This document shows, piece by piece, positions 7,926 through 24,516 of a stretch of 32,000 nucleotides of DNA. Numbering within the stretch: position 1 is the first letter of the stretch; every line of letters begins with the position of its first letter. The notes under the pieces are model-generated. The model ran no database searches. It had not been told where the DNA came from and worked only from the letters and a program-made list of their open reading frames with translations. The translations under genes and the position numbers were made by a program. The DNA lies in the NCBI GenBank assembly GCA_025839675.1, contig CP104013.1, positions 2,970,001 through 3,002,000 on the forward strand, written 5' to 3'. This stretch comes from Candidatus Lokiarchaeum ossiferum (GTDB lineage Archaea; Asgardarchaeota; Lokiarchaeia; Sigyniarchaeales; Promethearchaeaceae).

Positions 7926-7971
7926 CATGCCTCAATGTTTTTTAAGCTAGAAACCTTATTATATACCTACA

Positions 7972-9894
7972 TTGCCCACCAATTTATTTTCTCAAATTGA
8001 TTCCAGTCGGATATTATTTGATATTTCCCCAAATCCACAAGTTCTTCTTAACAAAAAGTATCTTATCGTAGAAGTTAATGAGGAATTTTCCAAAGTTATG
8101 GGTTATTCCAAAGAAGAAATGCTTAATAATCCAGTATCATCAATTTTTGCGAATATTCAAGAATATATCGAAGCTTCAGCCCTATTTACTCGAGATAATA
8201 AGCTCAAAAATTTTGAAATGATTCCGAAAATTGTGGATGGTTCAATTCAATATATGCTACTAAATATTAGGCAAATAATTGATCAACGACAAGATTTTTT
8301 AGGATATTTACTGACCTTCACAGAATATACTGCGATAAAAAATGTCATGGAATATACTCGACTAATCATTGAAACTTCTCCCAATCCTCAAATATTTTTG
8401 AATATCAACAATGAGATTTCAGATTTGAATAAACAATTATTGAAGGTAACAGGATATCAACGCGAAGATTTGATTGGAAATCCGGTTTCAATAGTTTTCC
8501 GTGATCATGAACAGTATCGAGCAGCCAACATCATCTTGAGAAAAGAAGGCCAGTTAAAAGATTTTGAAATGATCCCAAAATCTAGAGATGGAACGATATT
8601 TCACATGTTATTAAATATAAAACCCATGATAGATAAAAATGAAACAGTTTTGGGTTCTTTGCTTACTTTTACTGACATAACATCGCTCCGAAAGGCAATA
8701 GAAGTTGTTGAACAAATAACTGGGGATGTTTATTCAAGTAATACATTAGAAGAAAGAACAAATAATTCCCAACCAAAAAAAAATCAGCAAGATTTAGCTT
8801 CTATTAATCAAATAAAGATGGAAGCTGAGCTGAAAAAACGATCTCATGATTTAGATGAACGTATTAAGGAGTTACAATGTCTTTATGGAATTGACAAAAT
8901 TCTAGAAAATGAGGGGCTTTCCGTCAATGAGATTTTTCAGAACATTGTGTCTATCTTACCAGCAGGTTGGCAATTTCCTGAAATCACCAGAGCAAAAATA
9001 GAATTTGATGGGATCGCTTATATTTCTGCACAATATATTAATACAAATTGGAAGCAACGAAATAATATTCGGATTAATGGAGAAATTCGGGGGTATATTG
9101 AGGTTTTTTATTTGAAAAAAATGCCGAATGCTTCAGAAGGTCCATTTTTAAGAGAAGAACGTCATTTGATAGACGCAATTACTGAACGAATTGAAACCGT
9201 CTTTGAAAAAAAATTGGAGGAAAAAGCCCGAAAGCAGGCAGAAGAGAAGTTACAAGAACATGCTAGACGATTAGAAAACTCATTAAAAGAAAAGGAAGTT
9301 CTTCTTTCGGAAATTCACCATCGGGTGAAAAATAATCTCCAACTAATCTTTAGTTTAATTCTTCTGCAAGAACAATATGTTACAGATGAAAAACTCCAAT
9401 TAATGTATCGAGATTTTAAAAATCGCGTCAAAGCCATGAGTCAAATTCACGAAACACTATATTCCAGCGGGGATATCACCAAAATTAACTTTAATGCATA
9501 TATCCAAGAGATTATCACTAATTTAATTCACAGTTATTATATTGAAACGAATGTGGTTAAGTTGGATATATCAATCGAACAAATTGATATAAGTTTTAAT
9601 AAAACTATCTTATGTGGTTTGATTGTGAACGAAGTAGTATCAAATGTATTGAAATATGCTTTTCCAGACAATAAGAAGGGTAAACTTAAAGTAAAGATAC
9701 GAAAAAATAAAAAAAACGGAAATATTACAATCAACATTCAAGATAATGGAGTTGGATTCCCACTGGAGTTTGATTATTTAAAAACAGATACCTTAGGGTT
9801 ACGTATAGTGACATCTCTTTCAAAGCAACTTAAGGGATCTATTTCAATGAAAAATGAAAATGGAGTAAAATTTAACTTATCTTTCCAAGAATAG
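7972..9894 (+). CDS. Sensor histidine kinase, HisKA_2 type (2x PAS, a 'CLYGI' sensor module, HisKA_2, HATPase_c)
   Basis: 640 aa.
- Two tandem, clearly paralogous PAS units are present (SPNPQVLLN…FEMIPK…DG / SPNPQIFLN…FEMIPKSRDG).
- H-box: EIHHRVKNNLQLIFSLILLQ.
- N box: NEVVSNVLKYAF.
- G boxes: DNGVGF…LGLRIV.
- TTG 7972 is the only standard start upstream of the first PAS domain. There is an in-frame stop at 7948-7950, and the first ATG lies inside PAS1. Confidence 0.85.
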   Translation: MPTNLFSQIDSSRILFDISPNPQVLLNKKYLIVEVNEEFSKVMGYSKEEMLNNPVSSIFANIQEYIEASALFTRDNKLKNFEMIPKIVDGSIQYMLLNIRQIIDQRQDFLGYLLTFTEYTAIKNVMEYTRLIIETSPNPQIFLNINNEISDLNKQLLKVTGYQREDLIGNPVSIVFRDHEQYRAANIILRKEGQLKDFEMIPKSRDGTIFHMLLNIKPMIDKNETVLGSLLTFTDITSLRKAIEVVEQITGDVYSSNTLEERTNNSQPKKNQQDLASINQIKMEAELKKRSHDLDERIKELQCLYGIDKILENEGLSVNEIFQNIVSILPAGWQFPEITRAKIEFDGIAYISAQYINTNWKQRNNIRINGEIRGYIEVFYLKKMPNASEGPFLREERHLIDAITERIETVFEKKLEEKARKQAEEKLQEHARRLENSLKEKEVLLSEIHHRVKNNLQLIFSLILLQEQYVTDEKLQLMYRDFKNRVKAMSQIHETLYSSGDITKINFNAYIQEIITNLIHSYYIETNVVKLDISIEQIDISFNKTILCGLIVNEVVSNVLKYAFPDNKKGKLKVKIRKNKKNGNITINIQDNGVGFPLEFDYLKTDTLGLRIVTSLSKQLKGSISMKNENGVKFNLSFQE

Positions 9895-9906
9895 TGCTAA
9901 GAAATG

Positions 9907-11838
9907 TTATAGGGAACGATTTATGATGTCTTTTAATTGTTGAAGTGTAAAAGGTTTTTTTAGAACACCAATAAAACCATACGATATTGGGTCTGCCATG
10001 ATTGGATCATTAGAATAACCGCTACTCACAATTGCCTTTACATTTGGATCAAATTCTTTGAGTAAAACGATCGTTTCTTTCCCACCCATCGCACCTGGAA
10101 TAGTGAGATCCATAATTAACAAATCTACGGGATTTTCCGATGATTTAGCTTCCTTATATTTTAAAATCGTGTCTTTTCCATCATCCGTGAAGATAGCATG
10201 ATGTTTGAGATGTTTAAACATTTTCACTAGGATTTTTTGAATAGAAGGATCATCTTCTAACACCAAGATTGTCTTATTAGAAGTTGATTTCGAGGATTTA
10301 GATTTTGGTGGTGAAATAGAATTTGAACTCAAACCTTCAGAAATTACAGGAAGATAAATATAAAAGGTTGTTCCATGAGTTTCTGGAGCAGTACTAGAAA
10401 TAAAATAAATATAACCGTTATGGCCTTTCACAATAGAATACGCAGTGGCCAAACCTAAGCCACTTCCAGATGATTTAGTAGAAAAATAGGGTTCAAAAAT
10501 ACGAGATTGAATATCTTTTGGAATTCCAGAACCATGATCTTGTATCATAATCTCGATATATTTACCAGGGAGAAGATTTATTTTTTTTTGAATTTCTCGA
10601 TACCGGAGAAAATTTGTTTTTGTGTCAAAATTATGGAAACTAAGTATAATTTCTCCCCCTTTAGACATTGATTGATCCGCATTTATCACAATATTGCCAA
10701 TGACTTGAGAAATCTGGTTGGAATCAACATAACAATCCCACATTTTTTCATCAAAATCTAAAGTACATTTCGATTTGGAACCTCGTAAAGCAAATATTGC
10801 AGTAGAAGAAATTAATTGTGTAATGGATACATTAGATTTTACAGGCTTACCACCTTTTGAGAATGTAAGCAATTGATATGTAAGATTTTTTGCACGCATA
10901 ATTCCAGATTCTGTTTCACGTAGAATGGATTTGATATCTTCTAAATTATTTTCTTCTAATGCTAAACTCACATTTCCTAAGAGAGAAGCGAGAATATTGT
11001 TAAAATCGTGGGCAATTCCCCCTGCTAAATTTCCAATTGATTCTAATCGTTCCTGTTTTATTCGTTCTAGAGTTACTTTTTGACTTTGGGAAATGTGTCG
11101 TAAGAAACCTAAAACTTCAGTTGCTTCTTGATCTTGATATATAAATTGCAAATTAACTTCTCCCAAGAATTTTTCACCCGATTTAGAAATAATCTCAATT
11201 TCATGATAATCCTGAGTGGCCAGTCCTTTTTGTTTTTGTTGAATTAAATCTGTTAAAAATTCAATGGAATTGGGCGCAATAAATTCCTTAAAAGATATTC
11301 CAAGGATTTCATCTATTCTATAACCCGTTAGATTTAATCCGGCCTCATTAATTGAAGAAATTGTTCCATCATCTAAATGAACGGAAAAAACAACATCAGA
11401 AGAACGTTCAAATATTCGTTTATAACGTAATTCAGTATCTATTATGGATTCTTCTATGTTTCGAGAAAATGTAATATCTTGAAATTGCAGTGCAAAATAA
11501 GTCTGGATCTTGAAAACTCGTATAAAAACACAAATACTAGATTTATTTGACATAGGATCAATTTTCTGCGGATTGATCCAGATATCGTTGAATTTTGCAG
11601 ATTCTCCATGATTCAAAGATGAAATGTGCTCAATAATCCCAATATTTCGGAAATTCATGTCTTGAAAAAGATTATATGATTGGATGTGGAAAACTCCAAA
11701 GATGTCACGAAAAGATTGATTAAAATTCAAGACATTTCCCACTGAATCAACAATAAGTAATCCTAAAGGGTTTAACGCAAAAAATTCATTGCATAAATCT
11801 TTATCAAGCATTTTTTTCAAACTTTCCCGAACTTCCAA
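9907..11838 (-). CDS. Hybrid sensor histidine kinase (PAS-PAS-HisKA-HATPase_c-REC)
   Basis: 643 aa.
- H-box: IGNLAGGIAHDFNNIL.
- ATPase motifs: NADQSM, DHGSGI, GSGLGLA.
- REC: ILVLEDDP…LIMDLTIPGAMGG…KKP.
The start is TTG 11838 or ATG 11811. Confidence 0.9.
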   Translation of the reverse strand: MEVRESLKKMLDKDLCNEFFALNPLGLLIVDSVGNVLNFNQSFRDIFGVFHIQSYNLFQDMNFRNIGIIEHISSLNHGESAKFNDIWINPQKIDPMSNKSSICVFIRVFKIQTYFALQFQDITFSRNIEESIIDTELRYKRIFERSSDVVFSVHLDDGTISSINEAGLNLTGYRIDEILGISFKEFIAPNSIEFLTDLIQQKQKGLATQDYHEIEIISKSGEKFLGEVNLQFIYQDQEATEVLGFLRHISQSQKVTLERIKQERLESIGNLAGGIAHDFNNILASLLGNVSLALEENNLEDIKSILRETESGIMRAKNLTYQLLTFSKGGKPVKSNVSITQLISSTAIFALRGSKSKCTLDFDEKMWDCYVDSNQISQVIGNIVINADQSMSKGGEIILSFHNFDTKTNFLRYREIQKKINLLPGKYIEIMIQDHGSGIPKDIQSRIFEPYFSTKSSGSGLGLATAYSIVKGHNGYIYFISSTAPETHGTTFYIYLPVISEGLSSNSISPPKSKSSKSTSNKTILVLEDDPSIQKILVKMFKHLKHHAIFTDDGKDTILKYKEAKSSENPVDLLIMDLTIPGAMGGKETIVLLKEFDPNVKAIVSSGYSNDPIMADPISYGFIGVLKKPFTLQQLKDIINRSL

Positions 11839-11959
11839 AATTGGTTGTCATCTAACCAAACACCTACGTTTTAATATAGCTTTTTTTTTGCAAAGTTTTT
11901 TAGAAATATCTTTGTTGATCGGAATTAGGTTTATAACCGATATACGGTTTTTTTACTCA

Positions 11960-13252
11960 ATGCATCGACCGTTGATTACTGGAATTATTCAAAATATGGC
12001 TTTTAAAAAGTGTGAATTTAGTAAAGATGATAAATTGTATATTTTCGGGCGTAATCCAGAGCTTTCTCTGGCCGAAATTATCTCACGCTTTCATGTGATA
12101 GGGAGTACATATAAGATCAAAGCAATGAACAAAATTGGTGTAGTAATTGAAGCACCCAAACATATTTCTATCAGTAATTGTGGGGCGGTATTAAAACGAA
12201 GCAAACCACTAACAACCATCCATCAACCCTTAAATGTTCAAAATATAAAAAAGGACCTCACAGATCATATTATCAACGAATTTTTTGAAGAAAAAGGCAA
12301 TTGGACAATCAGCTATTATGCAAAAAAAATGGGACCTGAAGAAGAATATCTTTACCAAACAGTCCAAAAAATTATAAAAAATTCTCTAAAGAAAGCGGGT
12401 GTTAGAAAGGCTTTCTTCTTCAAAGGCGAGAAAAATAATATTGTGGAACCCCGAAGATTATGGCGCAAAAGAGTAATTCAAGACGGATTAGAAATAATTA
12501 TTTGGCAAAATAAAGGGGAGTTTACTCTCTGGCAAACTGAGGAAGTTATAAATATAGATGAAATAGCTAAGCGAGATAGTGATCGACCCCACAAACGGCC
12601 ACTTTTATTGTTAGGACTTGCACTTGCTCGGAGTATGATAAATCTAGTTTCTATTGAATCAAATCACCACGATCGTCCTATTTATGATGCATTTTGTGGA
12701 ATGGGATCAATTGTAAGTGAAGCTTATCATTTAGGTTTACAATCTTTAGGATCTGACATAGACGGATCTTGTACAACACGATCTCAAGAAAATTTGAGAT
12801 GGATTAGCCATTTAAAACCCAATCGTAAAAAGCGAGGCATTTTTCAAGAAAAAAACATCTTTACAATGGATGTAATGACCCCTGATATGGATAGATTGAA
12901 AAATTTCAATGGATCGATCGTTTCAGAACCAAATTTATTGACACCTTTAAAAAAATATCCCACTTACGCTAAAGCAAATGCACTCTTAGATACCTTTGAA
13001 AAAAATTATCGCGGTTATTTAGCAGGAATTAGAAAAATTTTGCCTAAAAATGGCATATGTGTGCTGATTTTCCCTCAATTTCACATTTCCACCAATGAAC
13101 GCGTGGGCTTAAATATAATTCAACTTCTTGGAGACTTTGGATTTAAAATGTGTGAATTTTCAATTGATTCATACAAATATCCCGCTCATTTTGTCCATTC
13201 GTGGAAAGATCCAATAATTGAACGACAAATAGTTGTTTTTAAAAAAGTTTAA
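11960..13252 (+). CDS. Trm11/UPF0020-like SAM-dependent RNA (guanine-N2-type) methyltransferase with an atypical motif IV
   Basis: - SAM motif I: YDAFCGMGSIVSEAYHLGLQSLGSDID.
- The N-terminus (LYIFGRNPELSLAEIISRF) resembles Trm11-family N-terminal domains.
- Motif IV reads SEPNL instead of (D/N)PPY.
- The track ORF starts at 11789, but residues 1-57 overlap the divergent kinase gene and look non-coding.
- ATG 11960 has a TTTATAA box 27 nt upstream; ATG 11996 is an alternative. Confidence 0.7.
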   Translation: MHRPLITGIIQNMAFKKCEFSKDDKLYIFGRNPELSLAEIISRFHVIGSTYKIKAMNKIGVVIEAPKHISISNCGAVLKRSKPLTTIHQPLNVQNIKKDLTDHIINEFFEEKGNWTISYYAKKMGPEEEYLYQTVQKIIKNSLKKAGVRKAFFFKGEKNNIVEPRRLWRKRVIQDGLEIIIWQNKGEFTLWQTEEVINIDEIAKRDSDRPHKRPLLLLGLALARSMINLVSIESNHHDRPIYDAFCGMGSIVSEAYHLGLQSLGSDIDGSCTTRSQENLRWISHLKPNRKKRGIFQEKNIFTMDVMTPDMDRLKNFNGSIVSEPNLLTPLKKYPTYAKANALLDTFEKNYRGYLAGIRKILPKNGICVLIFPQFHISTNERVGLNIIQLLGDFGFKMCEFSIDSYKYPAHFVHSWKDPIIERQIVVFKKV

Positions 13253-13391: not shown

Positions 13392-13889
13392 ATGAAAAAA
13401 ATTAAACAAAAACTTGTAATTATCTTTGCTTTGGTACTTGTTAGTATTAATGGGATAAGTTTTGGGTCTGCTTGGGGATTTTACCCAACTAATCCGATTC
13501 CTGTTGATCCAATTGAGATAACCTATGCAAATTATCTTGAACTGGATGGTGATGGGTATGAAGATGATGTAATTACTCAATTTACATTGAAATCGCCAAC
13601 AGGATATTATGCCTATTTGGATGTCGAACTCGAACTTGAATTAGTATTACCATCGGGTTACACCTATATAATGCGATTTAGCATTACTGAATTTTATGTC
13701 GAATTACCTGTCACTGTTGAATGGCATAATTGTGCCACAGAAAGTGGCTGGTATGATTTTAATATTGAAGCAGATATCTTTGGATTTGATTCAGATATTA
13801 TTTTCTCTGGAATAGTCACAGATTCATTAACGTTTGATCCACCTTTTGATAAATCGGGCAGTTCAATATTTGGAATGGTGCGATACTAA
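13392..13889 (+). CDS. Small secreted/exported protein of unknown function
   Basis: 165 aa. The N-terminus is a signal peptide (MKKIKQKLVIIFALVLVSINGISFGSAWG). The mature part is acidic and rich in beta-strand-forming residues. No family was recognised. Confidence 0.6.
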   Translation: MKKIKQKLVIIFALVLVSINGISFGSAWGFYPTNPIPVDPIEITYANYLELDGDGYEDDVITQFTLKSPTGYYAYLDVELELELVLPSGYTYIMRFSITEFYVELPVTVEWHNCATESGWYDFNIEADIFGFDSDIIFSGIVTDSLTFDPPFDKSGSSIFGMVRY

Positions 13890-13970: not shown

Positions 13971-15104
13971 GTGAAGAGGAAGAATTTAACAATCAAGGCA
14001 ATTCGAGTTCTATTAGCGCTAGAACAAAAGCCTTTAGCCACATATGATGAACTTTCTATTATTACTGGTTATGCAAAATCCGTTGTTTTTGGAATTATGA
14101 AACAGCTAAGTTCTTCTAAAGATCATCCTTCATATTTTTATGTCGTTGGTCATCCTAATCTTCATGCTTTGGGTTTAGAAGTTGTGGACGTCTTTGTTCA
14201 CGCAAATTCAATTGAACAAGTTACAAATCTCTATAAAATTTGTCAAGCTCATCCGTATACAATAGTATTTGCTCCTTGTTATGGTGCTACTAATGGAGCT
14301 TTGGTGCAATTTCGGATTCCTTTAAATTCTAAATCTCTGATAAATGACCTTTTTTCTCATTTTAAAGAGAATAATGTCATTCAAGACTTCCAAATCTTAA
14401 ATTTCGGAACAAAATCTATTTATACTTCTATTGATGTTAAATTCTGGGATTTTTCTTCCTTTTGTTGGAATTTTAATTGGGAAGAATGGTTTTCTTTTGA
14501 AATATCAGAATCAAAATCAGAACCAAAAACATTTGGAAAAGTAGGAACCGTAAAATCTTGGCTTAAAAAACGAGATATTGCTATACTTGCTCAGCTAACT
14601 GATGATGCAAGGAATAAAAAAATTGATATGATTAAAGCTTTGAAACAACAAGGATATAATTTTACGCCTCAAACCTTTAGTCGACGATTAAAACGTGTAA
14701 AAGATGAATGTATTTCTAAATATCGTGTTTTCATGGATTTAGCGTCTTTTGATTTGTTGAATTGTATAGCTATTTTAGGAAAGGGTAAAAAAAAAGAGAT
14801 TCAAGAACTTACTCAACGAGTATCATCTCAGCAAATTCCCTTTCATTCAGTGTTCAAATCAGAAAAGAATCGATTTTTTTGGTATTTATATCTACCTACC
14901 ACTCATACTGCAGATTTATTATATCATATTCGTCCCAAATTTAGTGATATAAAAATGTACTATATAGACCAACCTCGCAGTCATTTATTTTTACCTTGGC
15001 CTGAAACTTTTAATGAAGAGAAGGAAGATTGGAAAGTAGATCGCCAGTTCATGGTCGATGATGTAATTACCGCCCTAATTCCAAAGGATGAATCAACGGA
15101 TTAA
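13971..15104 (+). CDS. Putative transcriptional regulator with two winged-helix (Lrp/AsnC-like) HTH modules
   Basis: 377 aa.
- HTH 1: IKAIRVLLALEQKPLATYDELSIITGYAKSVVFGIMKQL.
- HTH 2: LKKRDIAILAQLTDDARNKKIDMIKALKQQGYNFTPQTFSRRLKRV.
- Each HTH is followed by a ~100-aa alpha/beta region.
- The GTG 13971 start is forced. There is an in-frame TAG at 13962-13964, and the first ATG lies after HTH 1. Confidence 0.6.
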   Translation: MKRKNLTIKAIRVLLALEQKPLATYDELSIITGYAKSVVFGIMKQLSSSKDHPSYFYVVGHPNLHALGLEVVDVFVHANSIEQVTNLYKICQAHPYTIVFAPCYGATNGALVQFRIPLNSKSLINDLFSHFKENNVIQDFQILNFGTKSIYTSIDVKFWDFSSFCWNFNWEEWFSFEISESKSEPKTFGKVGTVKSWLKKRDIAILAQLTDDARNKKIDMIKALKQQGYNFTPQTFSRRLKRVKDECISKYRVFMDLASFDLLNCIAILGKGKKKEIQELTQRVSSQQIPFHSVFKSEKNRFFWYLYLPTTHTADLLYHIRPKFSDIKMYYIDQPRSHLFLPWPETFNEEKEDWKVDRQFMVDDVITALIPKDESTD

Positions 15105-15405: not shown

Positions 15406-15459
15406 GTAGGAAAGGATGAGTTAATCCCTTCACCACTTTAAGAGGGGTTTATATCAGAA

Positions 15460-18400
15460 TTACAAAGTGAAATAACTACCTGAATTCCCATCAAATTCCA
15501 TAGGAGCATCGCCACCACTGTGAGGATACACTGAAGCAGCATAATCAAAAGCCGCTTCCATCGTTGTGGTTGCACTGCTACCAAAATGGTTGATCAAAGT
15601 ATATTCAAGGAAGTAATAAGTCCAAGCTCCATTATTATGGGCAGAATCATCATATCCATAGCCATCTTCAGTGCATGTGGTTGTGCAATAGACGTTATTA
15701 CTGTTAGGCATGGCCATTAATTCAGGACCAATTCCACCAGAATAACAATGATCAATGAACACAAATATGTCATCAGCAATGGCTCCATCAAGAATAGCAG
15801 CTAATTCAGTGTCATAAAAATCACCATCTTCACCACTTTCACCTGAACCGCAATCCCATGAGCAAATGTATGAACTACCAGATCCAGTACCAGAACCATG
15901 ACCAGAAGTGATATAAACGATTTCACCTTCTTGTTGAGCTAACCAATTCAAATAATATTTGGTATTGGCTTCGGTAGCTAGTCCATCATATTTTGGAAAA
16001 TTAGATGGATGACCATCACCAAGTACTATAATATTTGATTCTTCAAAGCCACAAACTGTGGTAAGATAATTGAAATAATCGGTTACATCTTCATCACAGT
16101 AAGATAAATCCGAAATTGCTTTATAATCAGAGACACCACAAAGTAAAGCATATTTTCCTCCAGTGCTAACCTCGTTATCAACAGTAATCGAAATAGAATC
16201 AATTTGACTATTTCCTGCGGCATCAAAGGCTTGAACTGATATGGTGTGACTACCTTCAGAAAGAGTGGTTGTATCAAAACTCCAGGAATAAGGAGCTGAT
16301 GCATCAGAAGTCCAGGATCCTGAATCAACTCGACATTGGACATCAACTACACCAACATTATCAGTGGCAGATGCAGTTATGGAAATTGTGTCTTCCACAG
16401 TGGCCCCATTAGATGGGGAGGTAATGGAAACGGTTGGTTTTTCATAATCCCCACCTGTTCCTCCAGTATAATAGCTCACAGTAGCGGTATACGCGGTGCT
16501 AGAAGCACTAGATGTGTACATCCGGACTGCAATATAGTAGGTTCCAGCAGTTTGAATGTTATATGAACAGGTTTCTGGATTGCTTGTGGTGTACCCCCGT
16601 GCAAGATATGAAGAATAGGATGCTGTTTGACAAATATACACATCAATATCATAACTTCCACTCCAGGAAACTGAAACGTCCATCATACCAGCTTCTACGG
16701 CAGATAATTCAAAGTAGTCAACTTCAGATCCAGCCACGCTTCCAGTAAGATCACGTTCAATCAATTGAACATCCCCATTATCATTGTCAACGGTGATGCT
16801 AACGTCATCTTCCCCAAAGTTTCCAGCAGCATCATACGCTTGTACCGTAATTGTATGAGCACCATCTGATAGAGTAGTAGTATCTAGTGACCAAGAATAT
16901 GGACTAGTAGAATCAGTTGTCCAAGATCCACTATCGACTTGATATCGAAGATAATCGACACCAACATTATCAGATGCGGATGCAGTTATAGAAATTGTAT
17001 CATCCACAGTGGCTCCATTTGATGGAGATGTGATAGAAATTGTTGGTTTTTCAGTATCAACAACAGTTCCACCAGTATAGTAAGAAACAGTGGTGGTGTA
17101 GCTTGTGCTTGATGCATATGAGGTGTACATTCTTACTGCAATATAATAAGTTCCAGCAGTTTGAATGTTATATGAACAAGTTTCAGGATTGCTAGTAGTA
17201 TAACCTCGTGCTAAATAGTTAGAATAACTAGCGGATGTGCAAATATATACATCAATATCATAACTATTTCCCCATGTGGCAGAAACCTGCATAAGACCAG
17301 GTTCAACATCTGTCAATTCAAAATAATCAACTTCACGTCCAGCAACTGAGCCAGTCAAATCTTCAGTAATTTGATCGGCTTTTTCATCAGCTAATTCATC
17401 AATTACACTTGCAACACCTAAGCTATAATATGATAATTCGGCAGAATAGGCCGTACTAGAAGCCCAGTAAGAGTACATCTTAATCCCAATATAATAAGTT
17501 CCTGCGGTTTGAATTTCATAAGAACAAGTTTCAGGATTATTAGTTGTATATCCTCGAGCAAGATAATTGGTAGTTGATTGAGTTGTTGAGATGTAACAAT
17601 CAATATCATAACTATTTCCCCATGAAACATCTAATTCCATTAATCCTGGTTGAGCTTCTACAATATACCAATCAGTTTCTCCTCGTCCAACACTACCTTC
17701 AAAGGTCTCAGTTATAGGAATTGGATTTGAATTGTCATTTGAGACACTAATTGAAATACTATCTTCATCAAAATTACCGGCTGCATCAAAAGCTTGAACA
17801 GTTATGGAATGACTTCCATCCGATACTGAAGTTGAATCCCAAGTCCAAGTATATGGTGCTGAATAATCTTGAACCCATGATCCAGAATCAATTCTATATT
17901 GAACATAGGAAACACCCACATTATCTGAAGCAGAAGCTTCAATGGCAACATCACCTAAAACAGTATCTCCAGATGATGGATTTGAAATTGCAACGGTAGG
18001 ATCAATTATATCTTCTCCACTGCTTGAACCTTTATAGTAAGATACGGTTGCTGTGTATGCGGTGGAAGAGGCACTACTGGTATACATTCGAATTCCAATA
18101 TAATAAGTTCCGGCTGTTTGAATTTCATAAGAAGTTGTTTCAGGGTTGTTAGTAGTATATCCTCGAGCAAGATAAGAGTTATAATTTGCAGTTTCACAGA
18201 TGTATGCATCAATATCATAACTTCCACTCCAAGAAACTGAAACATCCATCATTCCTGGTTCAACATTAGTAAGTTCAAAATAATCAATTTCAGATCCGGC
18301 GACGGAGCCTACTAAAGATTCAGTCACTAATATTGGACCTGTATAATCTTGATCAACATTTACAGTTATTTCATCAATATCGGTATTTCCTGCTTCATCA

Positions 18401-19950
18401 TATGCTTTTGCGGAAATATCGCGTGATCCGTCAGCTACTGAAGTAGAATCCCAAGTTAAAGCATAAGGAGAAGTTGTATCAGTTCCGATAATACTGCCAT
18501 CAATATAAAATTCGACTTTCGTAACACCTCTATTGTCTGAAGCATCAGCGGTGATTGTGATTGTATCTTGAACAATATCATTTTCTTTTGGATCTGTAAT
18601 AGTTACAGAAGGATCTATAATATCTTCACCAGAATTAGAATATCCTAAAAAGGCTTCAACATCAATTCGTCCACTTCCGTAAGTATTGTCCTTTCCAACT
18701 ACACCCATATCCACGGCACTTGCTTCAACAGCATCCTTAACGTCAGCAGGGGATACTTGGCCGTAGTATAAATCATAATAAAGAGCACATGAACCTGCAA
18801 CAAATGGAGTAGCCATAGAAGTACCACTCATTGTTGTGTATGAAGTTGTTGTACCAGCTCGAGCAGCTGTGATACTCACACCTGGACCACAAACATCAGG
18901 CTTAATTCTTCCATCAGGTAAAGGTCCCCGACTGGAGAAAGATGCAATATTCCATCCACCTTCACCAGGATCACTTACAGCACCTACAGTAATAGCATTG
19001 TATGCGCTTCCTGGAGAACCAATAGTTCCACTGCTAGGGCCAGAGTTTCCTGCTGCAATAACGACAGTTAAACCGCCAGCAACTAACTGATCGGCGGCTT
19101 CAGCGGTAGCATCATATAAGCCCCCATTATCATCCCCTAAACTCATGGATACAATATCGATACCATAAACATCTTTATTGGTTAAACACCACTGCATACC
19201 ATCAATTACTTGTTCATTTGTTCCACTACCAGAATCACTTAACACTTTGACTCCAACTAAGGCAGCTCCAGGAGCAACACCCATGTAATTAGAATTTGCA
19301 TCACCAGTTCCAGCAGCAATGCTAGAACAGTGAGTACCATGGCCATGACCATCATACGGATTGGATTGACCATTAATAGCATCGTACCATCCAATAACTT
19401 TTCCACCATCTAAATCAGCGTGAGAATTATCAATTCCGGTATCAACTACAGCAATAACAACATCATTCTTGCTGTAAGAAGTTGGATTTCCATCCCGATC
19501 CCCATCAACACTATAAGTTTGTCTTCCGGAAATTGCACCTGCATATTCTGCAGCAGTATCCATACATACTGTGAATTCACGGATATCATCTACACCTTTA
19601 ATTGAAGGTGCAGTCTCAAGTGCGGCGCGTATATTAATTGGGACTAACCCAACTACCATATCAAAACTTTCATATATTTTGTCGACAAGAATGCCGTTGG
19701 CTTCTAGGTACTCGTAATCGATACCGTCTTCAAAACCAATAATCTGTCGTTCGTATTCGATAGCATTTTGATCGACAGAAAAACTTTGTCTATATGAAGA
19801 AGATGATAGGGCTGATCCCAGAGTCAAAGACTGCGAAACCAGCATAAATAACATAAGTCCCATGAGTGGGACTATCATTTTATTCAATTTTTTATTCATA
19901 ATCAAACCAAACCCTTGATTATACCTTGATATCGAATTTTTTTTAATCAT
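15460..19950 (-). CDS. Large secreted multidomain protease: signal/anchor, pro-region, subtilisin S8, 4x(Ig-like + PPC-like), clan-CD cysteine peptidase-like domain
   Basis: 1,496 aa.
- S8 motifs: AVVD170TGID, GHGH204GTH, AAGN302SG, SGTS378MATPFVAG.
- Repeat modules span aa 441-1260.
- C-terminal motifs: KYALLCGVSDY…IVYITSGH1351G…FVFIDHC1402YSGG.
- The N-terminal hydrophobic segment is MIVPLMGLMLFMLVSQSLTLGSALS.
- The start may be ATG 19899 (MNKKLNKM…) instead of ATG 19950. Confidence 0.9.
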   Translation of the reverse strand: MIKKNSISRYNQGFGLIMNKKLNKMIVPLMGLMLFMLVSQSLTLGSALSSSSYRQSFSVDQNAIEYERQIIGFEDGIDYEYLEANGILVDKIYESFDMVVGLVPINIRAALETAPSIKGVDDIREFTVCMDTAAEYAGAISGRQTYSVDGDRDGNPTSYSKNDVVIAVVDTGIDNSHADLDGGKVIGWYDAINGQSNPYDGHGHGTHCSSIAAGTGDANSNYMGVAPGAALVGVKVLSDSGSGTNEQVIDGMQWCLTNKDVYGIDIVSMSLGDDNGGLYDATAEAADQLVAGGLTVVIAAGNSGPSSGTIGSPGSAYNAITVGAVSDPGEGGWNIASFSSRGPLPDGRIKPDVCGPGVSITAARAGTTTSYTTMSGTSMATPFVAGSCALYYDLYYGQVSPADVKDAVEASAVDMGVVGKDNTYGSGRIDVEAFLGYSNSGEDIIDPSVTITDPKENDIVQDTITITADASDNRGVTKVEFYIDGSIIGTDTTSPYALTWDSTSVADGSRDISAKAYDEAGNTDIDEITVNVDQDYTGPILVTESLVGSVAGSEIDYFELTNVEPGMMDVSVSWSGSYDIDAYICETANYNSYLARGYTTNNPETTSYEIQTAGTYYIGIRMYTSSASSTAYTATVSYYKGSSSGEDIIDPTVAISNPSSGDTVLGDVAIEASASDNVGVSYVQYRIDSGSWVQDYSAPYTWTWDSTSVSDGSHSITVQAFDAAGNFDEDSISISVSNDNSNPIPITETFEGSVGRGETDWYIVEAQPGLMELDVSWGNSYDIDCYISTTQSTTNYLARGYTTNNPETCSYEIQTAGTYYIGIKMYSYWASSTAYSAELSYYSLGVASVIDELADEKADQITEDLTGSVAGREVDYFELTDVEPGLMQVSATWGNSYDIDVYICTSASYSNYLARGYTTSNPETCSYNIQTAGTYYIAVRMYTSYASSTSYTTTVSYYTGGTVVDTEKPTISITSPSNGATVDDTISITASASDNVGVDYLRYQVDSGSWTTDSTSPYSWSLDTTTLSDGAHTITVQAYDAAGNFGEDDVSITVDNDNGDVQLIERDLTGSVAGSEVDYFELSAVEAGMMDVSVSWSGSYDIDVYICQTASYSSYLARGYTTSNPETCSYNIQTAGTYYIAVRMYTSSASSTAYTATVSYYTGGTGGDYEKPTVSITSPSNGATVEDTISITASATDNVGVVDVQCRVDSGSWTSDASAPYSWSFDTTTLSEGSHTISVQAFDAAGNSQIDSISITVDNEVSTGGKYALLCGVSDYKAISDLSYCDEDVTDYFNYLTTVCGFEESNIIVLGDGHPSNFPKYDGLATEANTKYYLNWLAQQEGEIVYITSGHGSGTGSGSSYICSWDCGSGESGEDGDFYDTELAAILDGAIADDIFVFIDHCYSGGIGPELMAMPNSNNVYCTTTCTEDGYGYDDSAHNNGAWTYYFLEYTLINHFGSSATTTMEAAFDYAASVYPHSGGDAPMEFDGNSGSYFTL
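15463..16164 (-). other. Clan-CD (caspase C14 / legumain C13-like) cysteine-peptidase-like domain at the C-terminus of the large protease (aa 1263-1496)
   Basis: The pattern is hydrophobic strand + DY (KYALLCGVSDY), then …NIIVLGDG…, then strand + HG (EIVYITSGHG), then strand + C (IFVFIDHCYSGG). This matches the His/Cys dyad topology of clan CD. The assignment is by motif only. Confidence 0.6.
16171..18630 (-). repeat. Intragenic tandem modules: four Ig-like domains and four PPC-like (pre-peptidase C-terminal) domains, period about 600 bp
   Basis: - Protein-level order is Ig1-PPC1-Ig2-PPC2-PPC3-Ig3-PPC4-Ig4.
- The two youngest units (about 16174-16749 and 16780-17355) are also recognisable at DNA level. 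For example, CCAGCAGTTTGAATGTTATATGAACA occurs at about 16543 and 17152. Confidence 0.85.
18646..19473 (-). other. Subtilisin-like (MEROPS S8) catalytic domain of the large protease (aa ~160-435)
   Basis: Asp-His-Ser motifs occur in the S8 order, with the oxyanion Asn in AAGNSG. Confidence 0.85.
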
Positions 19951-20327
19951 TTAAAAATAATTAAACGACTCTCAATATCAATGATATTTCATTCATAGTC
20001 TATATAAATATATTGAAAAAACTACCATCATTTTGTTAACAGTAGTAATTTTGAGTTGTTTATATATATTCAATTTTGAAACAGAATTTTGTGATTAAAA
20101 GATAAATTTTGTTAAGTTCTTAATATCTGGTTAATATGGATTGGGAAAAAAAAAGAATATTAAGACAAGGCATTTTTTTACCAATGGTCTGGATGCGAGG
20201 ATCATGCAAATAAAGATCATTCAACTTCGCATAATCGTCCTGTCTATTTTGACGGGCCAAATTTTTCCTGAGGAATTAGAATCTAAGAAAATATGAAAAA
20301 AGATGAGCGCTATCTCATTAAAACTTC

Positions 20328-21554
20328 TTAACTCAAAACAATTCTCAAGAAAACACCTATTATAACTAGGAAAGCAATAATACTTATTCCTAACTTCGAG
20401 AGAAGAAAGTTACGAGTAGGATTGACATGGAAATCGATTGCCTCGTGAGGACACAACTCAGTACAACAATAACAAGTGATGCATTTCTTTTTATCCCAAA
20501 GCGGAACAGTTTTTCCAACTTGTTTTTCTTCCGGAGGAGTTAAAGCATCCACAGGACAGTTTTGCCAGCATTTTCCACATAGTACACACTTGGAAGGATC
20601 CACTTTTAAACGAGATTTGAAGAGAATTTTACCCAGATATTCTGTAATCTTTTTGGGAATTTTAAATTTAGGTATTTTGATGGAAGGGAGTTTGAAAGGT
20701 CGTTTCACCGATTCAATTTTTTCTCCAACGAAGGTATAATCGTCCAGTTTCATGGAACCAAGATTTTTCTGTTCAGCTTTGGGTAAATACATAACTTGGT
20801 TTGGATCCACATCAATAATTTTGCACACTGTTGTATCCAAAGCTACTCCGTCATATCCAGCTAAGATCAGATCCAATTTAACAACGTCTCCAGCCGCTGG
20901 ACCTTTTCCTTCTTGACATAAATAACCATCTATAACAGTTAATTGGGGCGAAGAAACAGAATAAACATCAACTAAAGCGGAAGTGAAAGCATCAACCATT
21001 GGAAATCGCGCATGCATTTGAGCTTTATTCCCCAACATAACGGTCCCAAACATATTTTTAATGCAACAGGTTAGGGTTGTCAATCCATGGGTTTTGATTT
21101 TTGGGATATTTATAATCAAATCAGCATCTTCCAATAAATGTGTACTTGCTATTTCATCTAAAACAAATCCATTTTTAACTGAATAAATTTTTCGGGGAGT
21201 TTTTTCAAGAGGAGCACATTCAACATTTTCATCTATACACACTTGCAGAATTCCACAAGCTTTTAATGCCACCTGGGTAGCATTGGGAGAATTACTCCCT
21301 GAAGAATCACCCACAAAAACACGAGCAGGTTTAAATTGTTTCACCCAGCGAATGACAGCCCGTAAAACTTCAGGATGTGTGGTGACAGCTCGTTCCGCAG
21401 GTTTCCCACTGAGCACATTCGGTTTAATTAAAATGATCATACCTTCCCGAACCATCAATTCTTCAGCATTAATTGCTTTTAATGCGGTAAAAACCGCATT
21501 TTCTACCTCTTCATTATGAATTTTTTGAATTGAAATTAAGTTATTGTGAATCAT
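20328..21554 (-). CDS. DUF362-domain protein with a 2x[4Fe-4S] ferredoxin domain and a C-terminal TM anchor
   Basis: 408 aa.
- DUF362-like N-terminus: ILIKPNVLSGKPAERAVTTHPEVLRAVIRWV…VFVGDSSG.
- Two cluster motifs: CVLCGKCWQNCP and CITCYCCTELCP.
- C-terminal helix: LGISIIAFLVIIGVFLRIVL. Confidence 0.85.
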   Translation of the reverse strand: MIHNNLISIQKIHNEEVENAVFTALKAINAEELMVREGMIILIKPNVLSGKPAERAVTTHPEVLRAVIRWVKQFKPARVFVGDSSGSNSPNATQVALKACGILQVCIDENVECAPLEKTPRKIYSVKNGFVLDEIASTHLLEDADLIINIPKIKTHGLTTLTCCIKNMFGTVMLGNKAQMHARFPMVDAFTSALVDVYSVSSPQLTVIDGYLCQEGKGPAAGDVVKLDLILAGYDGVALDTTVCKIIDVDPNQVMYLPKAEQKNLGSMKLDDYTFVGEKIESVKRPFKLPSIKIPKFKIPKKITEYLGKILFKSRLKVDPSKCVLCGKCWQNCPVDALTPPEEKQVGKTVPLWDKKKCITCYCCTELCPHEAIDFHVNPTRNFLLSKLGISIIAFLVIIGVFLRIVLS

Positions 21555-21662
21555 AAATCTTGCACATTTAACTATTAGCTCCCATTCAATAAAAAATTAA
21601 AAACTCTAAAAACTTTGATAGACAGATTTGAATTTATACAAAGAAAAGGAGGGCGGAAAAAA

Positions 21663-22220
21663 TTAGAAAAGCGCATCTTCATGAATCGTTTCAAGACAAG
21701 AATAAGTGTTTTCAGTTTTTAACCCACTTTTCTCCATAATTTGAAAAATAAAAGATTCCAAACAATCAATACATCCTTCATCTTTAGAAGTAATGGGAAG
21801 AAAAGTTAATTGATGAATTAACGAATATTGAGTAATATTTTCAAGTTCATCGCATGTAAACGGTACTAGATCAATTTTATTCCTAATAATTAAAAATGAG
21901 ACTCTCCGAAGATTTTTTTCTTGAATTTTCATCTTCAAATAGCTAAAAAGTTGAGATGATTGAATTGTGAAATGATCACACACGAAAATAACTAAGTCCA
22001 CACCTTCAATTACTGGGGGAAAATTAAAAAAATCATTTATACTGGTGCCTCCGATTTCAATGAAATTCACATCAGTGGATAATCTTGATAAGTAATAAGT
22101 TTGCAAATCAACCCCAATTGTCGGTAAATAACTGGTTGTAAATTCTCCAGATCCAAATTTTTGCAAGATCTGTGTCTTCCCAACTCCAGGTTCTCCGATA
22201 AGTAATATTTTATAAACCAT
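21663..22220 (-). CDS. Ras/Rab-like small GTPase with a non-canonical G3/switch II
   Basis: 185 aa.
- G1: GEPGVGKT.
- Switch I: YLPTIGVD.
- G3: EIGGTS in place of DTAGQE.
- G4: NKID.
- G5-like: TSK.
- No CAAX or prenylation tail. Confidence 0.85.
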   Translation of the reverse strand: MVYKILLIGEPGVGKTQILQKFGSGEFTTSYLPTIGVDLQTYYLSRLSTDVNFIEIGGTSINDFFNFPPVIEGVDLVIFVCDHFTIQSSQLFSYLKMKIQEKNLRRVSFLIIRNKIDLVPFTCDELENITQYSLIHQLTFLPITSKDEGCIDCLESFIFQIMEKSGLKTENTYSCLETIHEDALF

Positions 22221-22443
22221 TTAGAATCCCTTTTTATCTTACTAATAGGTTGTTCTCTACTTCAATTTGAATTATTAGTTTTAGAAATATATCTATAAAC
22301 TTTACAATAAAAATGTCAGTTCTCCGAACTTTTCATAGTCAAGTAACTGTCTATCAAATGGTTCGAGCTAAATTTTTGAATTTTAGTAAAAACTATCAAA
22401 TTACATTTAATTACAACTAAGGGAAAAACTAGGGTAGAGAAAA

Positions 22444-24516
22444 ATGCTGACTATTGATCAAACCCATAAAGGTTTCATTGTTAAGTATAAAAACAAGATC
22501 ATTTTAAAACATTCCAAGGATTCTCCTTGCTGCAATTTTGGAACAGGAAATGCTTCTTATTCGGAACATCTTGGATCCTATAAAATTAAGGAAAATCTTT
22601 TTTACAAAACCAGTTTAACCAAGTTTAAAATTATAGAAACCAATGCTAGCCATCTACGAATTCACTTCTCAGATTCTACAAATCCTTCCGAGGTTCTGGA
22701 GATAATAATTCGAAATGAAAATCGAAGAATCGTGATAATCCCAAAAATTGGGACATTATCACCAGAAAATACTCTTATTATCGATGAAGGGAAGAAATAT
22801 AATCGATTTTGGATTAAATTAGCAGCCAATCCAGACGAGGCGATCTATGGATGCGGTGAACAATATTCAGAATTAAATCTCCGGGGGAAAAAATTACCTT
22901 TATGGGTGGAAGAACAGGGTATTGGTCGAGGAGATCCAAAATGGATCACATGGCTCGCCGATATCAAGGCTGGTGCAGGTGGAAAATGGTATACAACCTA
23001 CTATCCCCAGCCAACCTTCATTTCAACTGATCATTATTTTTGCCATGTAGATATGACCAGTTATTCTGTCTTCGACTTCATTTGTTCCGATTTCCACTTA
23101 TTACATTCATGGGAAATACCTAAGCAAATAATCTTAGAATATCATAATACACTATTAGATACCGTATCAGGTCTCTCTACATTTTTAGGCAGACAACCAA
23201 AATTAGCAGATTGGGTTTATGATGGGATGTGGCTGGCAATTCAAGGAAAAGGTGGAAACCAAGCAGTTCGAAACAGATTGCAAAAAGCCCTCGATGCAAA
23301 AGTTTTAGTCTCTGGAATTTGGAGTCAAGACTGGCAAGGAATCGTTACCACACCCTTTGGAACTCAATTGTTTTGGGATTGGAAGTGGGATGGAAAGGGT
23401 CGACCAGTTAGATTTGATAATTTTCCAGAATTTGTTAAAGAGATGCGGGAAAAAGGAATTCGATATTTAGGATACATTAACTCATTTTTGAATATTGAAG
23501 GAGAGCAATTTAAAGAAGCTTCGAAAAAGGGTTTGGTGATTAAAAATCGGGATGGAACCGATTTCATTACCAAAACAACCACTTTTCCAGTAGCATTATT
23601 AGATTTATCAAATCCAGCAACTCAAATATGGATCAAAGACATAATCAAGCAAAACTTGATAAATGAAGCGGGATTATCGGGCTGGATGTCGGATTTTGGA
23701 GAATATCTCCCCCCCGATGCAGCATTACACTCTGGAGAATCAGGAGAAAGTTACCATAACCACTTCCCAGTGGTTTGGCAACGGCTAAATCTGGAAGCGG
23801 TGCAAGAAGCGGGAAAGTCTGAGGAGATAGTTTTTTTCACCCGATCGGGTTATTCTCATACTTCTAAATATACAACTATGGTTTGGGCTGGAGATCAAAT
23901 GCCCAATTGGAGTATGGGTGACGGATTGGCTTCGGTCATTCCCGCAGGATTATCCTTAGGGCTCTGTGGAATCGGGTACTATCATTCGGATATAGGTGGT
24001 TTTACTTCAATTAAGCCTGTGGTTCGGAAAAAGGAAAATTTTATGCGATGGGTGGAACATTCTACATTCACGATGTTGATGCGGACTCATGAAGGAATTA
24101 AACCTGAAATCAACTGGCAATTTGATTCGGATCAAGAAACTCTTGACCATTTAGCGCGAATGACACATATTCATGCTATTATGAAGCCCTATCTACAACA
24201 CATTTCAGAAGAATATCAAACCACCGGTATTCCTCCGATGCGTGCTATGGTCTTGCACTATGAATCTGATCCAGAAGTCCGGGATCTCAAATATCAATAT
24301 CTTTTTGGGAAAGATCTTTTGGTGGCACCTGTAATTAAGAAAAAACGAAAATCCTGGAAAGTGTATATTCCTGATGATCAATGGATCAATATTTGGACCG
24401 GAAAAGATTGTATGAAGGGATGGCAAAAATATGCTGCACCCCTCGGAAAACCTCCTGTGTTCTATAGAAAAGGAACAAGATTTACCAATATCTTTGAATC
24501 TATCCAAAAATTATAA
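22444..24516 (+). CDS. Glycoside hydrolase family 31 alpha-glycosidase, YihQ-like subfamily
   Basis: 690 aa, collinear with E. coli YihQ as I recall it. Shared segments include ILKHSKDSPC, IYGCGEQ, YYPQPTF, LGRQPKLADWVYDG, nucleophile motif GWMSDFGEYLP, acid/base motif WAGDQ, MRTHEG and GKPPVFYR. Confidence 0.9.
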   Translation: MLTIDQTHKGFIVKYKNKIILKHSKDSPCCNFGTGNASYSEHLGSYKIKENLFYKTSLTKFKIIETNASHLRIHFSDSTNPSEVLEIIIRNENRRIVIIPKIGTLSPENTLIIDEGKKYNRFWIKLAANPDEAIYGCGEQYSELNLRGKKLPLWVEEQGIGRGDPKWITWLADIKAGAGGKWYTTYYPQPTFISTDHYFCHVDMTSYSVFDFICSDFHLLHSWEIPKQIILEYHNTLLDTVSGLSTFLGRQPKLADWVYDGMWLAIQGKGGNQAVRNRLQKALDAKVLVSGIWSQDWQGIVTTPFGTQLFWDWKWDGKGRPVRFDNFPEFVKEMREKGIRYLGYINSFLNIEGEQFKEASKKGLVIKNRDGTDFITKTTTFPVALLDLSNPATQIWIKDIIKQNLINEAGLSGWMSDFGEYLPPDAALHSGESGESYHNHFPVVWQRLNLEAVQEAGKSEEIVFFTRSGYSHTSKYTTMVWAGDQMPNWSMGDGLASVIPAGLSLGLCGIGYYHSDIGGFTSIKPVVRKKENFMRWVEHSTFTMLMRTHEGIKPEINWQFDSDQETLDHLARMTHIHAIMKPYLQHISEEYQTTGIPPMRAMVLHYESDPEVRDLKYQYLFGKDLLVAPVIKKKRKSWKVYIPDDQWINIWTGKDCMKGWQKYAAPLGKPPVFYRKGTRFTNIFESIQKL

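Follow-up and report, generated by a model that had tools for sequence, protein, structure and literature searches.

The stretch of DNA analysed here, referred to below as the window, consists of 32,000 nucleotides (nt) of contig CP104013.1 of the Asgard archaeon Candidatus Lokiarchaeum ossiferum (positions 2,970,001 to 3,002,000 of the forward strand), and the subject of this report is a gene lying on its minus strand, at positions 15460..19950 of the window. A single open reading frame (ORF) of 1,496 amino acids (aa) was found there, in which a subtilase domain of family S8 is joined, through a stalk of Ig-like and PPC modules, to a C-terminal domain that modelling identifies as a metacaspase-like peptidase of clan CD. 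The gene, an end-to-end fusion of two genes, has remained intact in three Lokiarchaeum genomes and shows purifying selection there. Its product is probably a secreted, two-headed protease serving the nutrition of the archaeon. To our knowledge, it is uncommon for one polypeptide to combine peptidases of two catalytic classes.

The window protein is identical to UYP46227.1 (locus NEF87_002512) of Candidatus Lokiarchaeum ossiferum B-35, for which the only deposited names are "hypothetical protein" or "Ig-like domain-containing protein". RefSeq places the start at M18 (nt 19899), giving a product of 1,479 aa. The original prediction, made from the bare sequence, had described one secreted polypeptide with two protease domains; both domains proved to be intact, the first by a Pfam match and the second by its dyad and its fold.

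The two catalytic domains and the stalk

The S8 catalytic domain (aa 151-440; 18631..19500, minus strand) was delimited by Pfam, by alignment with a solved structure and by its motifs. Peptidase_S8 (PF00082) matched aa 162-427 with an E value of 5e-53 and 180.7 bits, against a cut-off of 21.8, over profile positions 2-288 of 288. D170, H204, N302 and S378, which had been predicted to be the canonical residues, lie in the motifs VVDTG (codon 19441-19443), HGTH (19339-19341), AAGNSG (19045-19047) and SGTSMA (18817-18819, all on the minus strand), and both the order of the triad and the oxyanion Asn are canonical. These catalytic motifs were matched when the S8 part was aligned with the archaeal subtilase Tk-SP of Thermococcus kodakarensis (PDB 3afg; E 1e-63), an alignment that begins at residue 135 of the chain, with an envelope from 95.

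Ahead of this domain, the leader (aa 1-47; 19810..19950, minus strand) reads by eye as a basic n-region and a hydrophobic core, with a cleavage-like site at GSA/LS, and the N-terminus (MNKKLNKMIVPLMGLMLFMLVSQSLTLGSA/LS counted from M18) resembles a Sec signal peptide. It is followed by a segment (aa 48-150; 19501..19809, minus strand) that by eye resembles a propeptide; no Pfam family covers it, and the I9-type propeptide PF05922 gave no Pfam match in these ~100 aa separating the signal peptide from S8. Every complete relative whose N-terminus was read also begins with a signal-peptide-like segment. Together with the extracellular types of module found in the family (PPC, Big_7, CUB, PKD, cadherin), this suggests that the product is secreted.

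The final 234 aa (aa 1263-1496; 15463..16164, minus strand) hold the motifs SGH(1351)G and DHC(1402)YSGG, the codons of the dyad being at 15898-15900 for H1351 and 15745-15747 for C1402 (minus strand). Clan CD had been proposed for this domain, through either family C14 (caspases and metacaspases) or family C13 (legumain). The clan was upheld and C14 retained, while C13 was discarded. On the window protein itself, only PF01650 (C13) of these two Pfam families gave a score, of 16.3 bits, below its cut-off of 22.8. The NCBIfam model caspase_w_EACC1 matched with E 2.7e-5, below its cut-off, and the N-terminal half of the domain matched fungal metacaspase-1 as far as SGHG (E 7e-5). The assignment to C14 is made because homologues, profile and fold all point to that family. 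Two close homologues pass the PF00656 (C14) cut-off of 21.4, P0008 with 41.5 bits and P0245 with 25.5 bits. A word-indexed search returned 238 relatives of the domain at E<=1e-3; in that search the top relatives with a named source were all from Asgard archaea (Heimdall-, Thor-, Hod- and Hermodarchaeota, Promethearchaeota). PF00656 is present in most of the top relatives, and the name "caspase family protein" is given to some of them. In an exhaustive profile search, 232 cluster representatives reached E<=1e-30, and their number rose to 1,962 at E<=1e-10. The family is widespread in Asgard archaea, and the caspase-like domain always stands at the extreme C-terminus.

Conservation and fold agree with this assignment. 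The original prediction had proposed that H1351 and C1402 would be conserved in homologues and that the domain would adopt the caspase-hemoglobinase fold. Both residues are invariant across 64 aligned sequences, as are D1288, in the CxxD motif, and D1400, two residues before the Cys. An AlphaFold2 model of the domain, built with the 64-sequence alignment, reached a predicted local distance difference test score (pLDDT) of 95.8 and a predicted template modelling score (pTM) of 0.93. The best match of this model in the PDB, as found with Foldseek, was Arabidopsis metacaspase-9 (AtMC9; E 2e-12, query TM score 0.76), and further matches were MALT1, the yeast (Yca1) and Candida metacaspases, metacaspase-4 and legumain; for metacaspase-9, MALT1, Yca1 and legumain, E values ranged from 2e-12 to 1e-9 and query TM scores from 0.64 to 0.76. 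When the family profile was compared to the PDB, metacaspases only were returned, with Yca1 at E 2.4e-13. In the Yca1 alignment, SGHG falls on the catalytic His motif, DHC on DSCHSG and CDED on CIND, and the Ca2+ site of metacaspases lines up with acidic residues located between the His and the Cys. Membership of the legumain family was rejected: homologues match C14 with E 1e-10 as against 1e-3 for C13, the profile search of the PDB gave metacaspases only, and legumain ranks under the metacaspases and MALT1 in Foldseek. We conclude that, as modelled, the C-terminal domain is a clan-CD, metacaspase-like (C14-type) domain with an intact dyad.

In published metacaspase structures, the equivalents of D1288 and D1400 line the S1 pocket for Arg or Lys. 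As this acidic pair is kept along with the dyad, the C-terminal head should cleave after Arg or Lys, and its activity is probably Ca2+-dependent.

Between the two heads, Pfam recognised four Big_7 and four PPC stretches, in agreement with the four Ig-like and four PPC-like modules counted in the original prediction. The N-terminal stalk (aa 441-844; 17419..18630, minus strand) runs Big_7 #1, PPC #1, Big_7 #2, PPC #2, and the C-terminal stalk (aa 861-1262; 16165..17370, minus strand) runs PPC #3, Big_7 #3, PPC #4, Big_7 #4. At the other end, the chain terminus (...EFDGNSGSYFTL) falls within the conserved caspase-like domain. No NCBIfam model for an archaeal C-terminal sorting signal (PGF-CTERM and similar) matched the window protein, as had been noted on first reading.

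The G+C content within the protease gene is 0.37-0.40 (mostly 0.39-0.40), versus 0.31-0.35 in its flanks (window 16000-20000). The reason could be that the extracellular protein is rich in Gly, Ser, Thr, Asp and Ala, or that part of the gene came from a foreign source.

Origin and integrity of the fused gene

Comparison with relatives revealed where the two halves of the gene come from. Residues 857-1496 align, without any rearrangement, with two stand-alone proteins over their entire mature length: a 677-aa protein of Candidatus Harpocratesius repetitus (75% identity, from its aa 41), the alignment beginning directly past the signal peptide of that protein, and the 683-aa protein P0245 (68% identity, from its aa 49). 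Both relatives consist of a signal peptide, PPC, Big_7, PPC, Big_7 and C14, with no S8 domain. From this colinearity it follows that the gene is an end-to-end fusion between a subtilase gene, whose Big_7-PPC-Big_7-PPC tail became the N-terminal stalk, and a gene for a secreted PPC-Big_7-PPC-Big_7-caspase protein, the source of the C-terminal stalk. A short linker, SLGVASVIDELADEKADQ (aa 845-860; 17371..17418, minus strand), took the place of the signal peptide of the caspase protein, and is the meaningful junction at which the subtilase-derived half meets the caspase-derived half. The Big_7 modules of the N-terminal half are the most diverged among the four. The original prediction had considered another junction as critical, near nt 16165 between the last Big_7 module and the caspase domain; that one turned out to be ancestral, being present in all relatives.

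The four-fold repetition of modules within the gene, and the existence of relatives that hold both halves as separate genes, raise the question of an artefact, either a chimeric assembly through the Big_7/PPC repeats or a recent, meaningless read-through of two genes. The first of these had been a concern from the outset. The same 1,496-aa ORF, with 11 substitutions and the same synteny, is present in a second closed genome (CP163304.1), and a third independent assembly, the 39-kb contig ENA ERZ26802894 (locus L081) built from short metagenomic reads, codes for a protein 91.3% identical, again in the same synteny. Internal module repeats are only 65-74% identical as DNA, and the longest exact repeat measures 29 nt. 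Between the window and L081, synonymous divergence (dS) is 0.64 and the ratio of nonsynonymous to synonymous divergence (dN/dS) is 0.074 overall, 0.056 in S8, 0.049 in C14 and ~0.08 in the stalks, so that the constraint extends over both halves; every catalytic residue and the junction peptide are conserved in L081. Three assemblies, two of them closed genomes, short and diverged repeats, and a low dN/dS therefore exclude a chimeric assembly or a decaying read-through, and the probability that we leave to an artefact is negligible.

The synonymous divergence from L081 is uneven along the gene (window 15460-19950 versus L081 6001-10401): the propeptide has a dS of 0.16 and the N-terminal stalk one of 0.42, as compared with 0.81-0.89 for S8, C14 and the C-terminal stalk. 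Inter-strain recombination is a possible cause.

Rarity, recurrence and genomic context of the pairing

The survey of this architecture covered 78 genome loci (one genome per species), the top matches in a database of 5.8 billion proteins and the top 145 new cluster representatives. Over that whole scope, an S8 and a caspase-family domain were found in one protein in only two cases, L. ossiferum and the metagenomic protein P0256. The caspase ORFs reconstructed at the 78 loci, of ~250 to 970 aa, contain no S8 domain, and a search of the 5.8 billion proteins with the full-length query gave no further S8 plus caspase protein among the best 120 matches. Our literature search found no paper on S8-metacaspase fusions, on Asgard or Lokiarchaeal metacaspases, or on the locus NEF87_002512, and an S8-caspase architecture goes unmentioned in two surveys, which deal with prokaryotic caspase homologues and with serine proteases. 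Within the scope of these searches, the early suspicion that such a fusion had not been described is borne out.

The long relatives without S8 (10 loci and 55 cluster representatives, examined with Pfam) carry non-catalytic modules only, with the exception of P0275; the partner modules seen in the family are Big_7, PPC, CUB, Big_13, PKD, fn3, cadherin-like, He_PIG and beta-helix. We also considered whether the caspase domain is a general tag on assorted secreted enzymes, and rejected this: the partners of the 66 long relatives are nearly all non-catalytic, the exceptions being P0256 (S8) and P0275 (PAD_porph). The latter, a 1,396-aa protein from a JGI metagenome, consists of a Porphyromonas-type peptidyl-arginine deiminase, two proprotein-convertase P-domains, PKD repeats and then the caspase domain. 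The Porphyromonas enzyme (PPAD) cooperates with Arg-gingipain; by analogy, the deiminase fusion is a hint of Arg specificity.

P0256 is a protein of 1,152 aa, encoded on a JGI metagenome contig of 4.5 kb (GC 34.5%), with S8, Big_7 and jelly-roll modules, and caspase. Its S8 domain is 35-38% identical to the Lokiarchaeum S8, which has 52-58% identity with many S8 proteins that are not fused. On these figures the two fusions are independent events, and a single ancestral S8 fusion common to both was rejected. The called start of P0256 (L080 145-3603, JGI 3300009529) is a non-ATG codon placed right after a run of 12 A, which makes its N-terminus and signal peptide uncertain.

A third association takes the form of neighbouring genes. 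In Heimdallarchaeum aukensis, a gene for a 339-aa secreted S8 protein (L008 6368-7387, plus strand) lies directly upstream of a Big_7-caspase gene, on the same strand and with a gap of 184 nt; this arrangement is the split counterpart of the Lokiarchaeum fusion. In an unclassified archaeon, a 349-aa S8 orthologue (L015 12759-13808, plus strand), 69% identical to that of H. aukensis, belongs to the same gene cluster. With two fusions and one adjacency, subtilases have thus been recruited to the caspase module at least three times. At L015, a further 434-aa secreted protein is encoded between the gene of a small secreted protein and the S8 gene (11301-12605, minus strand). Two entries bear bacterial labels: L059, a contig labelled "Acetobacteraceae bacterium HOT.MB2.46" with two tandem caspase-family genes, and P0139, an S8-Big_7-PPC protein labelled "Acetobacteraceae bacterium". 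Both may be mis-binned archaeal contigs.

The caspase-like gene also keeps constant company. In the window, the convergent neighbour (13971..15104, plus strand) encodes a 377-aa tandem Lrp/AsnC-like, feast/famine-type DNA-binding regulator; the profile of its family matches archaeal Lrp/AsnC proteins (E 2e-8), with LrpC matched by the second half. Next to it, a 165-aa small secreted protein is encoded (13392..13889, plus strand), with the motifs DxDxDGxxDD, LPSG and FDPP. It has a signal peptide and a generic seven-strand beta sandwich, modelled by AlphaFold2 with a pLDDT of 76 and only weak, ApaG-like matches, and 9 homologues were found in all. The pair lies next to the caspase-like gene in 16 loci, and the regulator, counted alone, in 22. 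At L024, L025, L027 and L031, the order is caspase gene, 165-aa gene, 377-aa gene, which looks like an operon; other loci with the module include L008, L015 and L002. In H. aukensis, the S8 gene is divergent from the 165-aa/regulator pair. Synteny between L. ossiferum and Harpocratesius is limited to the three-gene module, and no S8 gene was found within 8 kb of the caspase gene at the Harpocratesius locus. Directly past the stop codon of the fused gene, a hairpin followed by a T-run (15410..15431, minus strand) matches the consensus of a terminator.

A role in defence was considered and rejected. Against the anti-phage protease systems of PADLOC (IetS, caspase-type), the protease gave generic domain hits only (subtilase, 88 bits; caspase, 29.5 bits), and its neighbour genes gave no matches.

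Other genes of the neighbourhood (window 20328-24516 and 4944-11838) encode three PAS histidine kinases, sensor or hybrid, a GH31 glycosidase, a DUF362 and 4Fe-4S protein, and a small GTPase of the Arf/Ras-like kind, which counts among the signature proteins typical of Asgard archaea. A plus-strand ORF at 11789-13252 (487 aa; annotated as 430 aa), whose 5' end overlaps an opposite-strand kinase gene, has only weak matches of a DNA-methyltransferase-like kind, in Pfam to N6_N4_Mtase (E 0.001) and in PADLOC to mad2 (E 6e-5).

Proposed function and comparison with known systems

We propose that the protein is a secreted two-headed protease, in which two complementary endopeptidases would degrade extracellular protein and so fuel peptide fermentation; from the gene and its relatives, we put the probability of this reading at about 0.6. 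After export, the propeptide-like segment would aid the folding of the S8 head and then be removed, as in other subtilases. The S8 head would have a broad specificity and the C-terminal head would cleave after Arg or Lys, probably with Ca2+, so that two heads of differing specificity would jointly digest extracellular protein. The Ig and PPC modules would act as spacers and bind the substrate or the cell surface, and the peptides released would feed the peptide-fermenting archaeon. Expression would probably be set by the adjacent tandem regulator; the Lrp/AsnC family is known for amino-acid sensors. In line with this reading, casein hydrolysate, tryptone, peptone or milk powder serve as substrates in cultures of L. 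ossiferum, which has a complex surface proteome and no S-layer (PMC9834061). Among the roles listed in the original prediction for the C-terminal domain, a second degradative activity fits best, whereas autoprocessing and anchoring fit poorly, because most relatives consist of nothing but a signal peptide, binding modules and the caspase-like domain.

Several points weigh against this proposal. The signal peptide and the propeptide were assigned by eye; the Pfam scan of the window sequence gave no match to PF00656; and hydrolysis has already taken place in most of the listed culture substrates (casein hydrolysate, tryptone, peptone, amino acids). Moreover, a processing cascade would account just as well for the repeated pairing with S8. 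In such a cascade, one head would mainly mature or release the other, and fusion would guarantee their 1:1 co-secretion: the subtilase might, for instance, cut the stalk and so release and activate the C-terminal head as a zymogen, or that head might trim the PPC/Ig tail of the S8 part. PPC domains are as a rule cleaved off once a protein has been secreted, and proteolysis is required to activate many metacaspases and subtilases. The S8-caspase linkage has arisen repeatedly, in two fusions with unrelated S8 lineages and by adjacency in two other archaeal genomes. Most members of the family, however, have no S8 gene within 8 kb, and the caspase-like enzyme therefore needs no dedicated subtilase in general; furthermore, the whole stalk is under purifying selection (dN/dS ~0.08), which suggests that it is not a throw-away linker. 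We consider a cascade, the strongest of the alternatives, to be unlikely as the principal role.

Alternatively, the protein may be held on the archaeal surface by its Ig/PPC modules and trim proteins of the cell itself or of syntrophic partners, in shedding, adhesion or signalling. Adhesion-type partner modules do occur in the family (CUB, cadherin-like, He_PIG, Big), and the conserved small secreted protein could be a substrate or an inhibitor. L. ossiferum has no S-layer, displays a complex surface proteome with many complex proteins, and makes cell-cell contacts (PMC9834061). We nevertheless judge surface remodelling to be quite unlikely, as the protein retains no membrane anchor or sorting tag once its signal peptide is cleaved, and as the linked regulator belongs to an amino-acid-sensing family, which points to nutrition. 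That the C-terminal domain is a transpeptidase or sorting enzyme (such as legumain/butelase, GPI8 or PorU), or a single-turnover autoprocessor of the C80 type (MARTX/TcdB), appears highly improbable. Clan CD does include such enzymes, the domain is always at the extreme C-terminus and legumain is among its structural matches, but profile and fold favour metacaspases above legumain, no sorting-signal family was detected with NCBIfam, and in hundreds of relatives the domain is the sole catalytic one, accompanied by binding modules only and hence without a cargo.

Beyond the digestive role that we favour, a bolder and more speculative proposal is that the two enzymes form an obligate unit at the Asgard cell surface, as an activation cascade or a sequential-cleavage pair, hard-wired at least twice by independent fusion and controlled by a tandem Lrp/AsnC regulator dedicated to it, together with a small secreted partner. 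We regard this as possible, on the doubtful side; if true, a widespread Asgard protease module would for the first time be assigned a function.

Both domain families are already known, the caspase-like family being auto-annotated as "caspase family protein", and the protein involves no new catalytic principle. The novelty lies in the rare fusion of two proteases, in the reconstruction of how it originated, in its having recurred independently, and in the conserved module to which the caspase-like gene belongs. Very few Asgard archaea are in culture, L. ossiferum among them, and their surface proteome and their way of feeding are poorly understood. The analysis also exposes an Asgard-wide family of secreted metacaspase-like enzymes that are uncharacterised.

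The nearest relatives of the C-terminal half are the stand-alone Lokiarchaeia proteins of 677 and 683 aa, colinear with it but equipped with their own signal peptide and lacking an S8 domain; at the Harpocratesius repetitus locus, the regulator and the small secreted protein are neighbours, as in the window. The N-terminal half resembles the Tk-SP/AprX-type S8A subtilases: roughly half of the aligned residues are identical in the 3afg alignment, the order is likewise pre-pro-catalytic followed by beta-sandwich C-terminal domains, and many relatives of ~860 aa have S8, Big_7 and PPC. The window protein differs from them in that its tail is doubled, and then followed by a second protein carrying a cysteine peptidase. 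With metacaspases and orthocaspases (MEROPS C14B; Yca1, TbMCA2, AtMC4, AtMC9), the C-terminal domain shares the modelled fold, the SGHG and DxCxSG dyad motifs, the CxxD and DxC acidic residues and the aligned acids of the Ca2+ site. In contrast to these enzymes, the Asgard family appears to be secreted, its domain is always C-terminal, and Ig, PPC or CUB modules stand in the place of the prodomain. Identity with solved structures is only ~15-18%, and the member in the window is joined to an S8 protease.

Two systems outside the C14 family can be compared in their design. The C80 cysteine protease domain (CPD) of MARTX and TcdA/B is likewise a clan-CD domain inside a long, multi-domain secreted protein, but it shows no sequence or profile match to the Asgard domain, which is usually without a cargo to release. 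The closest working analogy is offered by the gingipains RgpA, RgpB and Kgp of Porphyromonas gingivalis (family C25), secreted clan-CD endopeptidases with Ig-like and adhesin modules and a specificity for Arg or Lys, which is predicted in the Lokiarchaeum protein, in a host that is an anaerobe living on peptides; the deiminase fusion P0275 recalls the pairing of PPAD with gingipains. The Lokiarchaeum domain differs from gingipains in being C14-like rather than C25, in having no C-terminal domain of the type IX secretion system, and in its archaeal origin.

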